A stretch of 63,609 nt of DNA, the filler included, from Acidimicrobiia bacterium (GTDB taxonomy: Bacteria > Actinomycetota > Acidimicrobiia > Spongiisociales > SHLN01): the NCBI GenBank assembly GCA_041619515.1. It is 3 parts of 3 records of this genome, joined end to end, with 100 filler letters (N's around TTAATTAATTAA, not from the genome) between each part and the next. Parts side by side here need not be neighbours in the genome. Positions count along the whole stretch, not along the records: positions 25,291 to 49,314 come from JBFKDW010000044.1; 2 more parts are not named here. One strand, 5' to 3'. This document shows positions 25,191-49,414 of the stretch, piece after piece. How positions within the stretch are numbered: position 1 is the stretch's first letter; the number at the start of each line of letters is the position of its first letter. The translations under genes were made by a program, and so were the position numbers. The notes under the pieces are model-generated. The model worked only from the letters and a program-made list of their open reading frames with translations. It did no database searches and had not been told where the DNA came from.

Positions 25191-25290
25191 NNNNNNNNNN
25201 NNNNNNNNNNNNNNNNNNNNNNNNNNNNNNNNNNTTAATTAATTAANNNNNNNNNNNNNNNNNNNNNNNNNNNNNNNNNNNNNNNNNNNN
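25191..25290. other. artificial contig linker / gap
   Basis: N runs flanking TTAATTAATTAA (stops in all six frames). Confidence 0.97.
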
Positions 25291-25480
25291 GCCCCAGATG
25301 TCGGTGTCACCGATCTGTGTCATTGCCAGCATCCAAGCATCCGACCGAACACCGCGCCCAAGCTACCTGCCGGCGCGGGCCCGGTGCCACGCCCATCGCG
25401 CGTGGCGTGGGCTTCCCGGCGCCTGCAGCCGCGGAGATGGGGATGGGTAGTCTGGCCGCCGAGCTCTCGACGGGGAGGAC

Positions 25481-37538: not shown

Positions 37539-38348
37539 TTACTCCTCGAAGATGACGGTGGACGGGTCGGGATGCTCCTCGATCGACGTCTGGTACTCGC
37601 AGAACGTCTCGGCGTCCTTGCCGTTACCCCCGTCACAACTGTCGGTATTGCTGTTTGGGTCCTGGTAGGCGCCGGGCGGGGCCGGAGATTGGTCGGCCGG
37701 GAACGGAAGATCACCGTTCAGGAAGTCCTTCCCGTTTCCTCCAAACAGCGAGTCGTCGCCGAAGTTGCCGAAGAGCAGGTCGTCGCCGTTGTCGCCGTAC
37801 ACGGTGTCGTTGCCCGGGCCTCCCACGGCGATATCGCTGCCGTTGTCACCGTGGAGAACGTCCTTGCCCTGCTGGCCGGCGAGGAAGTCGTCACCGTTGC
37901 CTCCCCAAATGTGGTCGTCGCCTTCCCAGCCACCCAGGAACTGATCGTTGCCGTTTCCACCCCAGATGCGGTCGTTGCCCACGCCACCGTCGACGATGTC
38001 GGCACCGTTGTCACCGTGGAGCAAGTCGTCGCCGGCACAACCAACGACGAAGTCATCCCCGTTGCCGGCACGGATGGTGTCGTGACCATCGAGGCCGACG
38101 ATGAGATCGTCGCCGGACGTGCCGTTGAGTGTGTCGTTGCCGCTGGTTCCGACGATGAGGTTCAGCACCCAACCCTCTTCGGCAAGGAGGAAGGCGTTGA
38201 AGCCCACCGGGTCTTCACACACATCAGGGGGCCCGTCCTGGGCGCCGGCGGTTCCGGCCCCCGCCACCGAGACTGCGGCAACCAGGGTGAACGCTACGCC
38301 AAGCCGAAGAGCTCGTTTCAAGCTCCACCATCCAAATGCATGTTGCAT
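37539..38348 (-). CDS. secreted RTX/hemolysin-type calcium-binding repeat protein
   Basis: many GGxGxDxLx nonapeptides after a signal peptide; start uncertain. Confidence 0.85.
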   Translation of the reverse strand: MQHAFGWWSLKRALRLGVAFTLVAAVSVAGAGTAGAQDGPPDVCEDPVGFNAFLLAEEGWVLNLIVGTSGNDTLNGTSGDDLIVGLDGHDTIRAGNGDDFVVGCAGDDLLHGDNGADIVDGGVGNDRIWGGNGNDQFLGGWEGDDHIWGGNGDDFLAGQQGKDVLHGDNGSDIAVGGPGNDTVYGDNGDDLLFGNFGDDSLFGGNGKDFLNGDLPFPADQSPAPPGAYQDPNSNTDSCDGGNGKDAETFCEYQTSIEEHPDPSTVIFEE

Positions 38349-38518
38349 TCGGTGCACCTTTCTAAACGAAACCGCGCTGTGCGGTTCTGAACATGGCAAA
38401 ACTACAAGCCAGAGTGGTTGCCGGTCCCGGTCGGCGGTTGGCAGGATCCCGCCATCGATTCGGCCCTCGCCGAGTCCCGCACGGCCCGCCTAGTCTCGCC
38501 GGGGAGGACAGGAGGAGC

Positions 38519-40533: not shown

Positions 40534-40583
40534 GCCGCTACCGTAGCGGAGGGCCTCCCGTTCGGAGCGCCGCCCGGCCGTTC

Positions 40584-42155
40584 TCAGTATCCCGACGCCG
40601 GGTTGTGGCACTGGGTGCACTTCACGGTCTTCCAGACGCCGCCGATGTTGGCGGGATGCTCGAACTCCAGGCCGGCGAGGTCGTCCTCGAGCGCTGTCAG
40701 GTCGTCGGTGGGACCCTGGGCGACGATGGCGTGACAGCTCTCGCAGTCGGCGGAGATCGTGAGACCGGTCTCGGTTTGCAGGTCGTTGTTGTGGCAGCGG
40801 AAGCATCCGTCGTTGACGAAGTGGCTGAGGTTGTTGGTGCGGGCCCGGTAATCGGTCTTCAACTCGGGGAAGAAGTTGTTCTCGTAAACGCGCTGGAGAG
40901 CAGCCGTCGCTTCGTCGATCTTGTCTGCCAGCTCGGCAGCCCGCTCGGGATACTGATCGGCGTAGAACCCGGCTACTCCGACGGCAATGGAATTGATCCC
41001 CTGCTCCTGGGTCTCGTAGTCGGCGTTGAGGAGCCCGAGGCCGATGCTGCGAATGAAGGGAAGGTCCCGAGAGATGGCGCCCCGCGTGATCTCGAGGTTC
41101 ATCGCCGTTGCCGGAGGCTGGAACGAGTGGCTGGGTCGGTTGTGACAATCCATGCAGTCGAAGAGCCGCACCTCGGTATCCGGGTCGGCGGGGTCGGGTA
41201 TGTCGGCATCGGGATCGGCGTACACGGTCACGTCGCCGGTTGTGGTGTCGGTGACCCGCACCCAGGGGATCTCCTGTCGCCGGTCGTCGGCCGCGATGTA
41301 CTCGACGTCGACGGCGCTGAGCATGTGCCAGTGGATGCCCTCGAGCTCACCGGTGCGGGGGTTGCCGCCGCCGACGTTCACGAGGAGGCTGATGGTCCAC
41401 GGGGAGCTGGCCTCATCGGTCCGGTAATAGGTGCGGTTGGTCAGTTTCTGCCCGAAGAACTGCTCCGGCCAGTGGCAGCCCTCACAGGTTTGCTGGGCGG
41501 GTCGCAGGCTCTCGACCGGGGTGTGGATGGGCCGGTCGTAGCTGTTGGTGGCTGTTGCCACCAGCTGGCGAATGCCGTCGATCTTCGACCTGACCCAGAA
41601 CGATCCCCCCGGCCCGATGTGGCAATCAACGCACGGTACCCGAGCGTGCGGACCGTTGGCATAGGTCACATTCTGCGGATCCATGACATGGCACGATTCA
41701 CCACAGAACGAGACCGAGTCCGTTGCTTCGTAGGCCTTGAACCCGCTCCATCCGACCACCGACACGAAGAGCCCGGTCAGGGCGAGGAAGACCCACAGGT
41801 TACGCATGTAGCGGGGGTCGGACGGCTCGACCTTGAGCACGAAGTGAATGTCCTCTCCGAGTCGCCGGGCCTTCCGAACCTGGATACGGGCCGCAATCAG
41901 AAACAGGATGACTCCGAGGGTGAAGATGGCGGGGGCGCCCACAAAGGTGACGAGAGACCGGTACGGGTTCTCGACATCGCTGGCGATGTCGACGGCGGAG
42001 AGCACCACGAACGCGAAGGCGCCGGTGGCGATGAGGGCACCGCCCACTGCCGCCAGGGGGTGACGGTAGAGGGACCGTCGCTCCCGCTCATCGGTGCCTA
42101 TGGGGGCATCACCGGGCCGGCCCACGCCGGGACCATCGTCACCTGAGTCGCTCAC
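40584..42155 (-). CDS. membrane-anchored NapC/NirT-domain heptaheme cytochrome c (ImcH-like)
   Basis: 3 N-terminal TMs; CGESCH (CX3CH) plus CVDCH, CEGCH, CMDCH, CFRCH, CESCH, CTQCH. Confidence 0.88.
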   Translation of the reverse strand: MSDSGDDGPGVGRPGDAPIGTDERERRSLYRHPLAAVGGALIATGAFAFVVLSAVDIASDVENPYRSLVTFVGAPAIFTLGVILFLIAARIQVRKARRLGEDIHFVLKVEPSDPRYMRNLWVFLALTGLFVSVVGWSGFKAYEATDSVSFCGESCHVMDPQNVTYANGPHARVPCVDCHIGPGGSFWVRSKIDGIRQLVATATNSYDRPIHTPVESLRPAQQTCEGCHWPEQFFGQKLTNRTYYRTDEASSPWTISLLVNVGGGNPRTGELEGIHWHMLSAVDVEYIAADDRRQEIPWVRVTDTTTGDVTVYADPDADIPDPADPDTEVRLFDCMDCHNRPSHSFQPPATAMNLEITRGAISRDLPFIRSIGLGLLNADYETQEQGINSIAVGVAGFYADQYPERAAELADKIDEATAALQRVYENNFFPELKTDYRARTNNLSHFVNDGCFRCHNNDLQTETGLTISADCESCHAIVAQGPTDDLTALEDDLAGLEFEHPANIGGVWKTVKCTQCHNPASGY

Positions 42156-42257
42156 CGTGACCTCACTTCTTATGCGACCGTAACGGTTGACGGGGCCGCT
42201 GGGCTAGGGCCGAGATGCCCCCTGCGTTGGGACGGCTGCGGAGGACGCCCCGGCGGG

Positions 42258-43445
42258 TCACCGCTCGGCGGCACCGCCATCTATCCACGCCCTGACGAGA
42301 CCGAGATCGGCCTCGGACAGAAGCACCGGATGGCTGCCCGATTCCATGATCTGGACGATGCGGCTGGCACCCGAATCGCCGGGCACGATCACCGCCCCGT
42401 CGTCGCCTCCGGCGAGGGCCGACGCGTAGGTCGAGAGGTCGAGCCCGCCCGACTGGAGGTTGGCCCCGTGGCACCCGGTACACGTCGGGTTGAAGAGCGC
42501 CGCCACCTCCCCATCCCAGGTGCCGCCCCCGGTGATGGTTGTGGTTGGTCCGGACGAAGTGGTCGTGGTCGTCGGTGCCGTTGTGGATGTCGTCGGCGGG
42601 AGCGTTTCTACGGGCGCGAAGACCCGGACCTGCTCGGGCGGGGCGATGGTCGCAATGTTGGTGTGCTCAAAGGTCACGAACAAGTACACACCTGCCAGCA
42701 GCACGACGGAGAGACCTGCGTAGGCGGGACCGAACCGCATCAGGCGCCGCCGCTGTTCCTCGGGCGGCGGCAGCGGGTGGGCGTCCGCATCGATGGCGGC
42801 GAGTTCCAGCGGGTGGAAGTCCTCCATCTCACGGCGCGACAGGACGCCGGAGAACATGCTCTTGTTGAAATGGGCGAAATGAACGTGGTAGGTGTGCCAC
42901 ACGATGACGGCGAGGACCGCCAGGGTGGCCTCGCCTCCGTGAATGACCTTGGCGGTCGGCACCAGCTCTCCCGGCAGGACGCGGGTGGTCGCAATCGGGT
43001 TCCACAACATGTATCCGGTGATCACCATGACAACCGTGCCCCACACAAAGGACCAGTACTCCACTTTCTCTTCCCAGGTGAAGCGGCCCTGGGCCGGCGG
43101 TCGCTCGCCGCGCCCGAAGGCGTATTTGAGCGATCCCCGGAGGGCTTTCACATCGGCTGCGCCCGGGATCATCGTGCGCGGCCGTCGCAGAACGAACTTG
43201 CGATAGCCGGCCGACCCGAAGTGGTAGACGACGGCGATCATGAGCACAGTGGCAAACACCCGGTGAAGGTCGCGCACCATTTCGATGCCGCCCATCGCAT
43301 CGATGAGCGCCTCCGATACCCAGGCACCGTCGTAGCGCTGAACCAGCCCGGTGAGAGCCAGAACGACGAAAGCGACCATCTGTACCCAGTGCTCGAGCCG
43401 ATCAGATGCGGAGAAACGACGGATCTCGTCGGCGCCGGCTGTCAT
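42258..43445 (-). CDS. FdnI/HydC-type cytochrome b fused to a C-terminal monoheme cytochrome c
   Basis: TM His residues RLEHW, DLHR, VIHG, VWH; RFTWEEKVEYW; Thr-rich linker; CTGCH. Confidence 0.88.
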   Translation of the reverse strand: MTAGADEIRRFSASDRLEHWVQMVAFVVLALTGLVQRYDGAWVSEALIDAMGGIEMVRDLHRVFATVLMIAVVYHFGSAGYRKFVLRRPRTMIPGAADVKALRGSLKYAFGRGERPPAQGRFTWEEKVEYWSFVWGTVVMVITGYMLWNPIATTRVLPGELVPTAKVIHGGEATLAVLAVIVWHTYHVHFAHFNKSMFSGVLSRREMEDFHPLELAAIDADAHPLPPPEEQRRRLMRFGPAYAGLSVVLLAGVYLFVTFEHTNIATIAPPEQVRVFAPVETLPPTTSTTAPTTTTTSSGPTTTITGGGTWDGEVAALFNPTCTGCHGANLQSGGLDLSTYASALAGGDDGAVIVPGDSGASRIVQIMESGSHPVLLSEADLGLVRAWIDGGAAER

Positions 43446-44608
43446 GCGGCCACTGCCCGGGCCGAGCGCCGTTTTCTCACCGCCAGCGCGATCAGGTACA
43501 GCACCATGGCGCCGATGACCGTCGGGATGAGAATGCGGTAGGCCCAGCCCGCCAGCCAGACGAGGGTCGCCTTCCCCGGTTCGGGTGAGTAGTGGCTCAG
43601 CCAGGCGGCCGAGAAATTCTCGGTGGCGTCCGGGTGACACCGCTGGCAAGTCTGGAGGAGATTGGCCTGGAACACCGTGCCTTCCGGGTCATCGGTCCCG
43701 CGGATGGCGTGGACGCCGTGACAGTCGATGCACACCGGCTTGTTGGTCTCTTGATCGGGCGCCAGGTCCTCGAAGAGAATCACCGTCGATCCGTGGAAGT
43801 CGGCCACGTAGGATTCGAGGACGTTGGTGCTGAGGCCGTAGGGAGCCATCAACTCGCTGTCGGTATGGCAGTCGGCGCAGATCTGCGGCGAGAACAGGTG
43901 GAAGGGTGAGTCGGTGGGCCCTTCCACGCTGTGAACTCCGTGGCAATCGGTGCAGGTAGGGACGTCCCGATTGTCGGCGTTGAGCGCCTCGCCGTGGACA
44001 CTCTGTTCGTAGAGGTCGTAGATCTCCGAATGGCACTGGCGGCAGGTGAGAGGGACTTCGGCGCTGTGCGCCACCGGCTTGGCGGTGTCGTGGGCGCCAT
44101 GGCAATCGGTGCACACGGCCGCTGCCGTTTGCCCGTCCGCCAGCGCTGCCGAGTGCACGTTGTCGACGGCTTCGGTGTACTGGTCGAGATGGCAGCCCTT
44201 GCAGGCATCGGCCCGCTCGATCGTGAACGCCCTGGCGTCGAGTGAACTGATCGGATGATGAGGGAACGGCGTGATGTCGGTGTGGCAGAGGGCGCAGGGA
44301 ATCTGGTACGAACCGTGCACCGAGGACTCGAAGGCAGGAATGTCGAAGGTGAGGTCGAGGATCTCCCCACTGGGAAGCGTGGTCTGCATCCCCTCCTGGG
44401 CGTGACAGCCGAGGCAGTACTCGTTGTCGAAGCGGATATCGTCGGGCGGCTGATCCTGGGCGGGAGCGGCACCCACTCCCAGCCCCAAGAGCACGAGGAA
44501 GCCGATGCCGGCTGCTGCCGCCACACGTGCGATCGACGCAGCCGCCCGCCGGCCGCCGTCCACCGGCGGAAGCGGGCCGTGGTCGTCGCCGACGCGTGTT
44601 CCTATCAC
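43442..44608 (-). CDS. nonaheme cytochrome c with C-terminal TM helix
   Basis: nine CxxCH (CLGCH, CALCH, CKGCH, CTDCH, CRQCH, CTDCH, CADCH, CIDCH, CQRCH); ATGA overlap with the cytochrome b gene. Confidence 0.9.
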   Translation of the reverse strand: MIGTRVGDDHGPLPPVDGGRRAAASIARVAAAAGIGFLVLLGLGVGAAPAQDQPPDDIRFDNEYCLGCHAQEGMQTTLPSGEILDLTFDIPAFESSVHGSYQIPCALCHTDITPFPHHPISSLDARAFTIERADACKGCHLDQYTEAVDNVHSAALADGQTAAAVCTDCHGAHDTAKPVAHSAEVPLTCRQCHSEIYDLYEQSVHGEALNADNRDVPTCTDCHGVHSVEGPTDSPFHLFSPQICADCHTDSELMAPYGLSTNVLESYVADFHGSTVILFEDLAPDQETNKPVCIDCHGVHAIRGTDDPEGTVFQANLLQTCQRCHPDATENFSAAWLSHYSPEPGKATLVWLAGWAYRILIPTVIGAMVLYLIALAVRKRRSARAVAA

Positions 44609-44704
44609 ACATCGAACGTACCGAGCAGGTTCGCAGGCGATTAGGGCCGGGAGGCCTCATCAGCATGGGACCTGCGGGCCGCCGATTGGGCTCAGCCAAT
44701 CGGC

Positions 44705-44977
44705 CGTCTGGTCGGCACGGGCCCCACGGTGCGAAGGAGGGCAGACCGGCGTCTGTTCGGCCCGGGACACAAGTCGGCGCGCGAGCACGGCCGCCGTGGG
44801 GCAGGGGCCCCACCTTGCGGAGGAGGGCCGACCGGCGTCTGTACGGCACGGGCGAAGCCCGCACCCAAGTCGGCCCGGAAAGACGCGACCGCCGTGGGGC
44901 AGGGGCCCCACGTTGCGGAGGAGGGCCGACCGGCGTCTGTTCGGCACGGGCGAAGCCCGGGCCGAAGTCGGCCCGGG
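44705..44977. repeat. tandem palindromic (REP-like) repeat, about 3 units
   Basis: about 70-bp near-identical units starting at 44791 and 44889 (98-bp period), plus a degenerate copy at about 44719-44761; hairpins GTGGGGC-aggg-GCCCCAC and CGGGC-gaa-GCCCG. Confidence 0.85.
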
Positions 44978-44987
44978 CTACAACGCG

Positions 44988-45337
44988 TGGAGGTGCGGGG
45001 ATTCGAACCCCGGTCCTCTGAAGTTTCAGCGCCGGCATCTCCGAGCGCAGCCGACAGCGAGTTTGTCGGGCCTCGGGACTCTGTCAGCAAGTTTCCCTCG
45101 GCCGTATCCGGAGTTGTTCTTTCCCCTCCGGTCCCGGACCCCGGTGGGGGCATCCTGCGTTGCGACGCCCTGTCCCGGCGAGGCAGGCACCCACCGGGAG
45201 GACGGGCTACTTAATTAGGCAGCCAGTGCGAAGTTGTCTTCGGCACTTATTTGTTTCCCGGCTCTTTAACGAGGACTCCGGGGACCTCGGCTCGCTTCCG
45301 ACGCCTCAACCTTCAAAGTCGAAGCCAGTTCACCCCC
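44988..45337 (-). ncRNA. ssrA: tmRNA; tag peptide (A)AEDNFALAA at 45244-45215
   Basis: 5' GGGGGTGAACTGGCTTCGAC and 3' GGTTCGAATCCCCGCACCTCCA with G3-U wobble; tag ends in ALAA; downstream of smpB. Confidence 0.95.
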
Positions 45338-49314: not shown

Positions 49315-49414
49315 NNNNNNNNNNNNNNNNNNNNNNNNNNNNNNNNNNNNNNNNNNNNTTAATTAATTAANNNNNNNNNNNNNNNNNNNNNNNNNNNNNN
49401 NNNNNNNNNNNNNN
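49315..49414. other. artificial contig linker / gap
   Basis: N runs flanking TTAATTAATTAA. Confidence 0.97.

Follow-up and report, generated by a model that had tools for sequence, protein, structure and literature searches.

A three-gene cytochrome cluster of an Acidimicrobiia bacterium that resembles a split CbcL encoded together with an ImcH-family cytochrome

The window analysed here, a stretch of 63,609 nucleotides (nt) joined from contigs of an Acidimicrobiia bacterium (GenBank assembly GCA_041619515.1), contains at positions 40584–44608 a cluster of three cytochrome genes, hereafter named A, B and C. Comparison at the sequence level firmly places the products of genes A and B as a split homologue of the CbcL/MtrH-type bc cytochromes, outside the fused architecture of that group, and the product of gene C within the ImcH family. 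We consider it probable that the two modules together oxidise menaquinol in the cytoplasmic membrane and deliver its electrons to outer-face haems, in a cell that has no outer membrane. An earlier note on this DNA had described three co-oriented genes with 17 c-haem motifs; all three open reading frames (ORFs) are real and lie on the minus strand, and their translations contain the 17 motifs (nine in A, one in B and seven in C).

Gene C (positions 40584–42155, minus strand) encodes a protein of 523 amino acids with three N-terminal helices, which hydropathy places at residues 34–52, 71–89 and 120–138. One haem motif is of the CX3CH type (CGESCH, residue 151) and the other six are CXXCH (residues 175, 224, 334, 451, 471 and 513). 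These features, together with a Pfam match to NapC/NirT (PF03264, E 4.7e-9), bear out the description of this protein as a NapC/NirT-type cytochrome with three transmembrane helices and seven motifs including one CX3CH. The ImcH family has been defined by three helices, an adjoining atypical CX3CH motif and five to nine CXXCH motifs (Zhong and Shi 2018, PMC6295460), and the tables of that source place the helices of the Geobacter member GSU3259 at residues 13–35, 45–67 and 100–122 and its motifs at 132, 156, 205, 311, 428, 448 and 486 (Table S3). The spacing of the motifs is 24/49/110/117/20/42 in gene C, 24/49/106/117/20/38 in GSU3259 as listed, and 24/49/108–109/117/20/39–40 in other listed members (PMC6295460). 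Across 90 homologues of gene C taken from loci of at least 16 phyla, all seven motifs are invariant, as are K191, Q197 and exactly six other His residues, which would be enough for six bis-His haems. For haem 1 of GSU3259, His/Gln ligation by H137 and Q179 has been predicted, with a conserved K173 (Pimenta 2023, 10.1101/2023.05.03.539133). In gene C, which has a one-residue gap right after the haem-1 motif, K191 and Q197 follow the haem-1 His at distances of 35 and 41 residues, compared with 36 and 42 residues for K173 and Q179, and they would correspond to these residues by position, not by alignment to GSU3259. Architecture, motif spacing and the conserved Lys and Gln agree with the ImcH assignment that had been proposed for this gene. 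In all, gene C shares with ImcH (GSU3259; Levar 2014, PMC4251993) the three helices, a CX3CH motif next to helix 3, six CXXCH motifs, a length of about 500 residues, similarity to NapC/NirT/NrfH over helix 3 and the first haems, and a Lys and a Gln near haem 1. It differs in belonging to a well-separated subfamily, in lying in an operon with a bc cytochrome, whereas the Geobacter imcH gene is monocistronic, and in its host, which is probably a monoderm aerobe.

A tetrahaem quinol dehydrogenase of the NrfH/NapC/CymA kind was considered for gene C and rejected: the protein has three helices and seven motifs, and its scores fall below the cut-offs of TIGR03153 (NrfH; E 2e-18, 66.8 versus 134.2) and TIGR02161 (20.4 versus 310.6). 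Residues 141–229 do match the NrfH chain 2j7a_C (E 5.6e-5), but NrfH has one helix and four haems, and neither its partner NrfA nor, for comparison with FdnI, FdnGH is encoded near the cluster. A structural model of gene C built from the 90-sequence alignment reached a predicted local distance difference test score (pLDDT) of 83.9 and a predicted template modelling score (pTM) of 0.77; a model built from 20 sequences (pLDDT 55) was unusable. Searched with Foldseek against the PDB, the better model gave no match at E ≤ 0.001. VIA-align wide returned helical-hairpin matches to helices 1 and 2 (Z up to 8.1), which are uninformative, a PDB sequence search found no ImcH or CbcL entry, and the ESM Atlas search returned generic NapC/NirT clusters and nothing more specific.

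The family of gene C is large, with 4,185 proteins at E ≤ 0.001 among the 8,000 candidates scored and matches in at least 599 species-level genomes. In a midpoint-rooted tree of 95 rows, from which no donor is claimed, gene C groups with the sequences of two Acidimicrobiia metagenome-assembled genomes (MAGs) (support 99). This group is nested in an actinobacterial clade of 19 rows (support 98), which in turn is nested in a subfamily of 32 of the 95 rows that also includes Zixibacteria, Ignavibacteria, Calditrichota and a Pseudomonadales MAG (support 100). The subfamily is 34–43% identical to the branch that holds relatives from Melioribacter, Draconibacterium and Korobacteraceae.

Gene A (positions 43442–44608, minus strand) encodes a nonahaem cytochrome c of 388 residues, with CXXCH motifs at residues 65, 105, 136, 166, 189, 219, 244, 293 and 321. 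Hydropathy reveals two hydrophobic segments, a predicted N-terminal export or anchor segment at residues 29–47 and a C-terminal helix at residues 352–370, so that the nonahaem cytochrome with a C-terminal transmembrane helix reported in the earlier note was recovered. Pfam matches were obtained to Cytochrome_C7 (E 2.1e-12) and Paired_CXXCH (E 4.4e-10), and the best hit of a PDB sequence search had an E value of 0.004, to an entry titled "cytochrome c".

The start ATG of gene B overlaps the TGA stop codon of gene A as ATGA. The longest ORF of gene B spans positions 42258–43649, and relatives align from the ATG at position 43445, which gives a protein of 395 residues in three parts, all on the minus strand. 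The cytochrome b part (residues 1–261, positions 42663–43445) consists of an FdnI/HydC-type dihaem four-helix core plus a fifth helix, the linker (positions 42534–42662) is, from its translation, a low-complexity Pro/Thr-rich stalk after helix 5, and the tail (positions 42258–42533, stop codon included) is a monohaem PSCyt1-like cytochrome c domain, whose CTGCH motif, the only one in gene B, lies at residue 322 and is preceded by the PPTTSTTAPTTTTTSSGPTTTITGGG linker. With Pfam matches to Ni_hydr_CYTB (PF01292, E 1.1e-23) and PSCyt1 (PF07635, E 8.3e-10), the gene is as it had been read, an FdnI/HydC-type cytochrome b with an extra monohaem domain on a Thr-rich stalk. Residues 10–216 match the FdnI chain 1kqf_C of Escherichia coli formate dehydrogenase N (Fdh-N; E 3.6e-11), and in this alignment His19, His61, His169 and His184 of gene B fall opposite His residues of FdnI that we take to be its four haem ligands. 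H19, H61, H75, K127, H169 and H184 are invariant across 54 b-domains. Helices 1 and 5 were detected by hydropathy (threshold 1.6), and helices 2–4 are predicted from the FdnI alignment; helix 5 is predicted to return the chain to the outer face.

One important question is whether A and B can be regarded as a single cytochrome in two pieces. When part of gene A was joined to residues 1–275 of gene B, the composite aligned collinearly with 29 single-chain ORFs of other phyla. These ORFs lie beside ImcH homologues; they have 11, 13 or 19 haems, the last of which is followed by five to six helices. The nine motifs of gene A align with the last nine haems of these fused homologues and are conserved in all 30 sequences, and most of its distal His residues also align in 30 of 30; the same holds for H19, H61, H75, K127, H169 and H184 of gene B. 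In tblastn searches against fused proteins of other phyla the E values were 1e-25 to 1e-52 for gene A and 1e-17 to 1e-35 for gene B. The CbcL/MtrH/MtoC family has been described as carrying, on the outer face, a multihaem c domain of 3–23 motifs, with nine in CbcL (PMC6295460), and the family list of that source contains the haem counts and sizes of the fused homologues (Zhong and Shi 2018, Table S2). Because A and B align end to end with 29 single-chain proteins of the CbcL/MtrH type, the interpretation of the pair as a split CbcL holds, collinear with multihaem-c/dihaem-b proteins of the CbcL/MtrH/MtoC group. A feature of these proteins that is absent here is the presence of the c and b parts on one polypeptide, since there are two genes overlapping by ATGA; all 16 A/B pairs examined in Acidimicrobiia are split in this way. 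No haem motif was found after the helices in any of 30 fused ORFs.

For CbcL, the published positions are 619 residues with nine motifs followed by transmembrane helices at 285, 351, 399, 477, 511 and 589 (PMC6295460). A and B resemble CbcL (GSU0274), MtrH and MtoC in having nine c haems, an anchor helix and an FdnI/HydC core with conserved His, predicted to have four helices and to be followed by one more. From hydropathy and the FdnI alignment, this would make six helices in the same order as in CbcL. They differ from CbcL in the split, which lies in the cytoplasmic loop after the anchor helix, in the Thr-rich stalk and monohaem c domain that gene B adds, and in the haem spacing of gene A. 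The Geobacter cytochrome CbcBA (GSU0593-0594) was also considered. As described, its b and c subunits are separate, the c subunit CbcA is encoded first and has seven haems and a C-terminal anchor helix, CbcB has four helices and three His with the fourth His supplied by CbcA, the operon is controlled by sigma-54 and BccR, and no sequence homology to CbcL is reported (Joshi 2021, 10.1101/2021.04.15.440034). Our pair is similar in its separate subunits, with the c subunit first and anchored by a C-terminal helix; in contrast, gene A has nine haems, and gene B holds all four FdnI-type His and a fifth helix. No CbcBA-like regulator gene was found near the operon on its contig. With haem count, His supply, helix number and regulator all unlike, CbcBA fits less well than CbcL and was rejected. 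A precedent in terms of layout is Carboxydocella thermautotrophica, a monoderm Fe(III) reducer for which a dihaem b protein and a separate one-helix multihaem c protein have been taken as a split CbcL, and whose genome also has an ImcH homologue (Toshchakov 2018, PMC6085454). As described there, it shares with our organism, which is probably monoderm too, the two-gene CbcL-like cluster and an ImcH homologue in the genome. It is, by contrast, a thermophilic anaerobe of the Firmicutes, its ImcH homologue lies in another cluster, and in the passages available no cytochrome c tail is mentioned for its b subunit, the comparison being one of descriptions, not of sequences.

The tail of gene B sets it apart from the fused homologues. 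The conserved positions in 21 copies of the tail domain taken from relatives are W, CxxCH, GLD, Y, GD, S, G-H and WI-GA, and the copies retain a His rather than a Met. Because this His is conserved where the domain family, as we assume, usually has Met, the tail domain is suggested to be bis-His ligated and of low potential. The number of stalked c domains per gene B homologue ranges from 0 to 3 in the Acidimicrobiia loci, and database homologues as long as about 690 residues suggest that there may be up to four copies. Of the 120 best database clusters of gene B, 116 carry PF01292 with PF07635, their lengths group near 400, 490, 600 and 690 residues, and the named members come from MAGs of Acidimicrobiia or Actinomycetota. 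Many gene B homologues are labelled "formate dehydrogenase gamma subunit" by the Joint Genome Institute (JGI) despite their cytochrome c tails. Gene B itself was rejected as a formate dehydrogenase gamma subunit (FdnI), since its TIGR01583 score (69.1) is below the cut-off of 115.85 and no molybdopterin or iron–sulphur subunit gene lies nearby. In the loci examined, the homologues adjoin ImcH homologues and have no formate dehydrogenase gene nearby, and the label is likely a systematic misannotation. This type of cytochrome b with a cytochrome c tail is abundant in metagenomes, and the label hides it from surveys.

The distribution of the two modules was analysed in 80 loci kept from a genome_contigs search that contain an ImcH homologue, and in a class sample of 401 Acidimicrobiia genomes, from which 17 loci were fetched. 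A b subunit with its multihaem partner lies within the stretch of DNA retrieved around the ImcH homologue in 33 of the 80 loci, from many phyla (22 fused alone, 6 fused plus split and 5 split alone); six more have an A-like gene alone, and 41 have neither, 19 of these with less than 3 kb of flank on one side. The earlier note had presented the co-location of both quinol-oxidation routes as a trait of this organism. The co-location stands, its being peculiar does not, and we conclude that CbcL-type and ImcH-type modules side by side are the usual layout in many phyla. Within the class sample, gene C occurs in 15 of the 401 genomes and gene B in 15, all of one order; of the 16 genomes with at least one of them, 14 have both (one has C alone, and one has just a B that is cut by a contig end). 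Ten of the 17 class loci have A, B and C collinear, three have A-B convergent with C, one is spaced, one has just a monohaem gene and two have C alone. In four relatives (loci L103, L105, L107 and L109) the cluster stands beside genes for a thiamine pyrophosphate (TPP) enzyme and a chorismate-binding domain, resembling menD and menF of menaquinone synthesis.

Such joint inheritance could also mean that the two modules are coupled in a redox loop or supercomplex, in which one of A-B and C would reduce menaquinone on the inside while the other oxidises menaquinol on the outside, protons are moved, and electrons pass between outer-face partners of different potential. The occurrence of A-B and C in one operon across many phyla, their co-inheritance and the monocistronic state of imcH in Geobacter speak for it, as do the predicted quinone sites on opposite faces (NrfH-like for ImcH, FdnI-like for B). 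Several genomes, however, carry a copy of C without A-B nearby (loci L113 and L118), and in Geobacter each protein is described as working alone (10.1101/2021.04.15.440034; 10.1101/2023.05.03.539133). We regard this arrangement as very unlikely.

In the mechanism that we favour, oxidation of menaquinol by both modules, the C-terminal helix of gene A would dock on gene B, like the matching helix of the single-chain forms. Gene B would take electrons from a quinol site on the cytoplasmic side and lead them through its two b haems across the membrane to gene A, the FdnI geometry in reverse, as proposed for CbcL. On the outer side, menaquinol would be oxidised by gene C at an NrfH-like site adjoining haem 1, in a step that would be electroneutral, as measured for Geobacter ImcH. 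The stalked c domain of gene B may replace the soluble periplasmic carriers of diderm bacteria, and electrons would go onward to a hexahaem lipoprotein encoded on contig C10, from which an acceptor outside the cell, such as Fe(III), Mn(IV) or humics, would receive them. In this scheme we infer which way the electrons flow, what accepts them and which partners the module has.

The same proteins might also run the other way, with an external donor (Fe(II), reduced humics or a partner cell) delivering electrons to A and then through the b haems of B to menaquinone, a direction that in FdnI-type proteins generates proton-motive force. Gene B retains the FdnI fold with all four FdnI-type His, FdnI in Fdh-N reduces quinone, and the high-potential oxidases of this genome could dispose of the electrons. 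The family includes MtoC of Fe(II) oxidisers and is taken as bidirectional by Zhong and Shi (PMC6295460). In the same survey, however, ImcH homologues are so far tied to reducers alone, and in our class sample C and B are inherited together in 14 of 16 genomes. The Mtr-type conduits beside the pair in diderm relatives work both ways, so they do not decide the matter. We consider electron uptake decidedly unlikely as the function of this cluster.

Candidate electron partners were sought by a genome-wide scan, which returned seven ORFs with two or more CXXCH motifs. Apart from A and C, one of them is of the multihaem c3/c7 kind, a hexahaem lipoprotein (C10:22575–23660, minus strand) with a lipobox, a (GPA)n collagen-like linker and a PF22113 match, whose gene adjoins ccmG. 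It is 44% identical to hexahaem genes that lie beside the clusters in three loci of relatives (L008, L115 and L004) and shows distant similarity to one half of the decahaem protein of relatives; a PDB search with it gave nothing better than E 0.24. By analogy with those loci, this lipoprotein is a candidate wall-spanning partner of the operon. The maturation genes ccmFHIG lie next to it on contig C10, and ResB of System II maturation was not found in the genome, which has CcmF- and CcmC-type genes instead. The search of the genome for multihaem cytochromes and maturation genes that had been proposed in the earlier note is answered by this lipoprotein and the Ccm genes. The other four multi-CXXCH ORFs encode class-I cytochromes c of Rieske/cytochrome b complexes, of an NrfD-type cluster and of oxidase-linked proteins.

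The surroundings of homologous clusters point to electron export. Eleven of 21 Acidimicrobiia loci contain a decahaem lipoprotein of 707–784 residues with MtrC/MtrF-type domains, with Ccm genes nearby. In the closest relative, whose gene C is 84% identical, ccmF-H-I-G and a gene for a decahaem lipoprotein precede the cluster, and the flank downstream of it corresponds to another contig (C47) of the present genome. In a Pseudomonadales locus with the same gene C subfamily (L016), the genes after the pair encode an MtrA-like protein, an MtrB/PioB porin (390 bits) and an MtrC/OmcA-like protein, and in other diderm relatives the pair lies beside other multihaem cytochromes.

Several points weigh against oxidation of menaquinol for export. 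The likeness of gene C to GSU3259 and that of A and B to GSU0274 were judged from published motif positions and from homologues of other phyla, with no Geobacter record among the 80 loci or the 120 proteins listed. The Foldseek matches of the gene C model to NrfH (2j7a/2vr0), its one meaningful kind of PDB match, are weak, with a probability of 0.93–0.96 but E values of 0.24–0.32. MtoC, of the same CbcL/MtrH/MtoC family, occurs in Fe(II) oxidisers (PMC6295460), which bears on the direction of flow. The operon and the hexahaem gene are on different contigs, their link being one of analogy, and neither tblastn nor a protein search recovered the decahaem lipoprotein of relatives from this genome. 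Finally, two haem-copper oxidases (aa3-type and cbb3-like), two Rieske/cytochrome b complexes and many class-I cytochromes c make this the genome of an aerobe, so that electrons could stay within an ordinary respiratory chain.

This last point leads to an internal branch, in which the cluster would act as a menaquinol:cytochrome c oxidoreductase without any acceptor outside the cell. Its tethered c domain would pass electrons to the oxidases of the cell or to a reductase on the wall side whose gene lies elsewhere. The cbb3-like and aa3-type oxidases and the many membrane-bound class-I cytochromes c would provide its targets, the tail of gene B is a class-I-like c domain on a flexible stalk, and actinobacteria replace soluble cytochrome c by tethered c domains (QcrC) that resemble this tail; the missing decahaem surface cytochrome also fits. 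On the other hand, two Rieske/cytochrome b complexes already fill this role, the His in the tail domain, instead of the presumed Met, would suggest a low potential, and what accompanies the clusters of relatives is not oxidases but multihaem lipoproteins of the MtrC/MtrF type or, in a diderm, MtrAB. Such a branch is unlikely in our judgement, and oxidation of menaquinol with transfer to the outer-face haems remains the reading that we favour.

Other cytochrome genes were seen during the analysis of the genome. Directly before ccmF, C10:14744–18100 encodes a Rieske protein, a cytochrome b and then a 790-residue fusion of a petD-like part with tandem class-I c domains (seven CXXCH); seven-haem genes akin to the latter lie near the A-B-C cluster in loci L017 and L104. 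At C8:6525–8462 (minus strand), a single ORF of 645 residues joins haem-copper oxidase subunit I to a FixO-type monohaem subunit, with a 311-residue cytochrome c gene alongside. The region C3:79300–83200 (minus strand) contains genes for an NrfD-type membrane protein, a 509-residue dihaem protein with one PSCyt1-like domain and a 396-residue protein with four class-I c domains, and may be an alternative quinol:cytochrome c module.

The cluster is located on contig C44 (24,024 bp, window positions 25291–49314); the runs of N at positions 25191–25290 and 49315–49414 are joins between separate contigs, and gene adjacency across them is not real. The genome, metagenome-assembled, comprises 3.10 Mb in 146 contigs, with 95.65% completeness and 0.2% contamination. 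The base composition of the cluster region resembles that of the remaining genome, and the G+C content at third codon positions (GC3) of the three ORFs is 0.78–0.83. A sequencing-run search yielded no RNA run, and the matching DNA runs were marine metagenomes of two studies, from one of which this DNA may stem, and one soil metagenome; the host is probably a marine member of the Acidimicrobiia. It is also probably monoderm, and neither Omp85 nor MtrB was found in this 95.65%-complete genome. In a scan of the cluster for promoters and terminators, no promoter-like site was detected and terminator-like sites were no more frequent than by chance.

Directly upstream of the cluster lies the transfer-messenger RNA (tmRNA) gene ssrA (positions 44985–45337, minus strand; Rfam RF00023, 168.4 bits, E 3.5e-67), and the gene order is prfB, ftsE, ftsX, an M23 peptidase gene, smpB, ssrA, three repeats, A, B, C and an ABC-F ATPase gene. 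The three tandem G+C-rich repeats (positions 44702–44976, 91–98 nt each), between ssrA and gene A, occur nowhere else in the genome, and the unit folds into two hairpins (RNA fold z-score −2.0). A genome of the same genus (G234), in which smpB is 89% and the tmRNA 94% identical, was used for comparison. The segment from the ABC-F ATPase gene to ssrA (window positions 40549–44985) corresponds there to L123:8437–12329, a variable slot that lacks the repeat unit and holds genes for a secreted protein, an OmpR-type regulator and a histidine kinase and a 194-residue ORF; the ImcH-like gene of G234 (53% identical to gene C) lies on another contig with a 15-haem partner. Because the slot of the same-genus genome holds other genes, these data show that the cytochrome module moves as a unit, which fits its patchy distribution (15 of the 401 class genomes). 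A tmRNA gene was found near the cluster in none of the other 97 loci. A genomic island bounded by direct repeats of the tmRNA 3' end was rejected, since there is no such repeat and no integrase gene nearby. Among the neighbours on the contig there is no gene for NrfA, formate dehydrogenase or a hydrogenase catalytic subunit, which upholds the statement that no catalytic reductase is adjacent. Steady clustering with a soluble-substrate enzyme, which would have spoken against the CbcL/ImcH comparison, was observed in none of 11 inspected loci of other phyla and not on this contig. On the same contig, positions 37539–38399 (minus strand) encode a 286-residue secreted protein with four RTX calcium-binding repeat matches (E 1.2e-30).

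ImcH and CbcL and their wide distribution were known already, as was, from the published description, a split CbcL-like pair with an ImcH homologue in the monoderm Carboxydocella (PMC6085454). New are the lineage, the division into two genes together with a tethered cytochrome c tail, and the insertion beside the tmRNA gene. No description of the Acidimicrobiia form, of the cytochrome c tail or of the nearly strict joint inheritance of both modules turned up in a literature search over titles and matched passages, which is weak evidence. The best-studied chain for extracellular electron transfer is entered through ImcH and CbcL, which serve as its marker genes, and an ImcH with a split CbcL in a probably monoderm, oxygen-respiring marine member of the Acidimicrobiia widens the list of candidate electroactive lineages. 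Beyond this, we put forward as a tentative idea, and a rather unlikely one, that this marine order carries a compact, horizontally mobile kit for electron export fit for a cell without an outer membrane, in which the split CbcL and ImcH would form one unit and one to four stalked c domains would swing electrons through the wall to lipoprotein multihaem cytochromes. If this were true, an abundant lineage of sediments and particles, taken for plain aerobic heterotrophs, would be electroactive, with a wiring plan unlike the Geobacter and Firmicute models.

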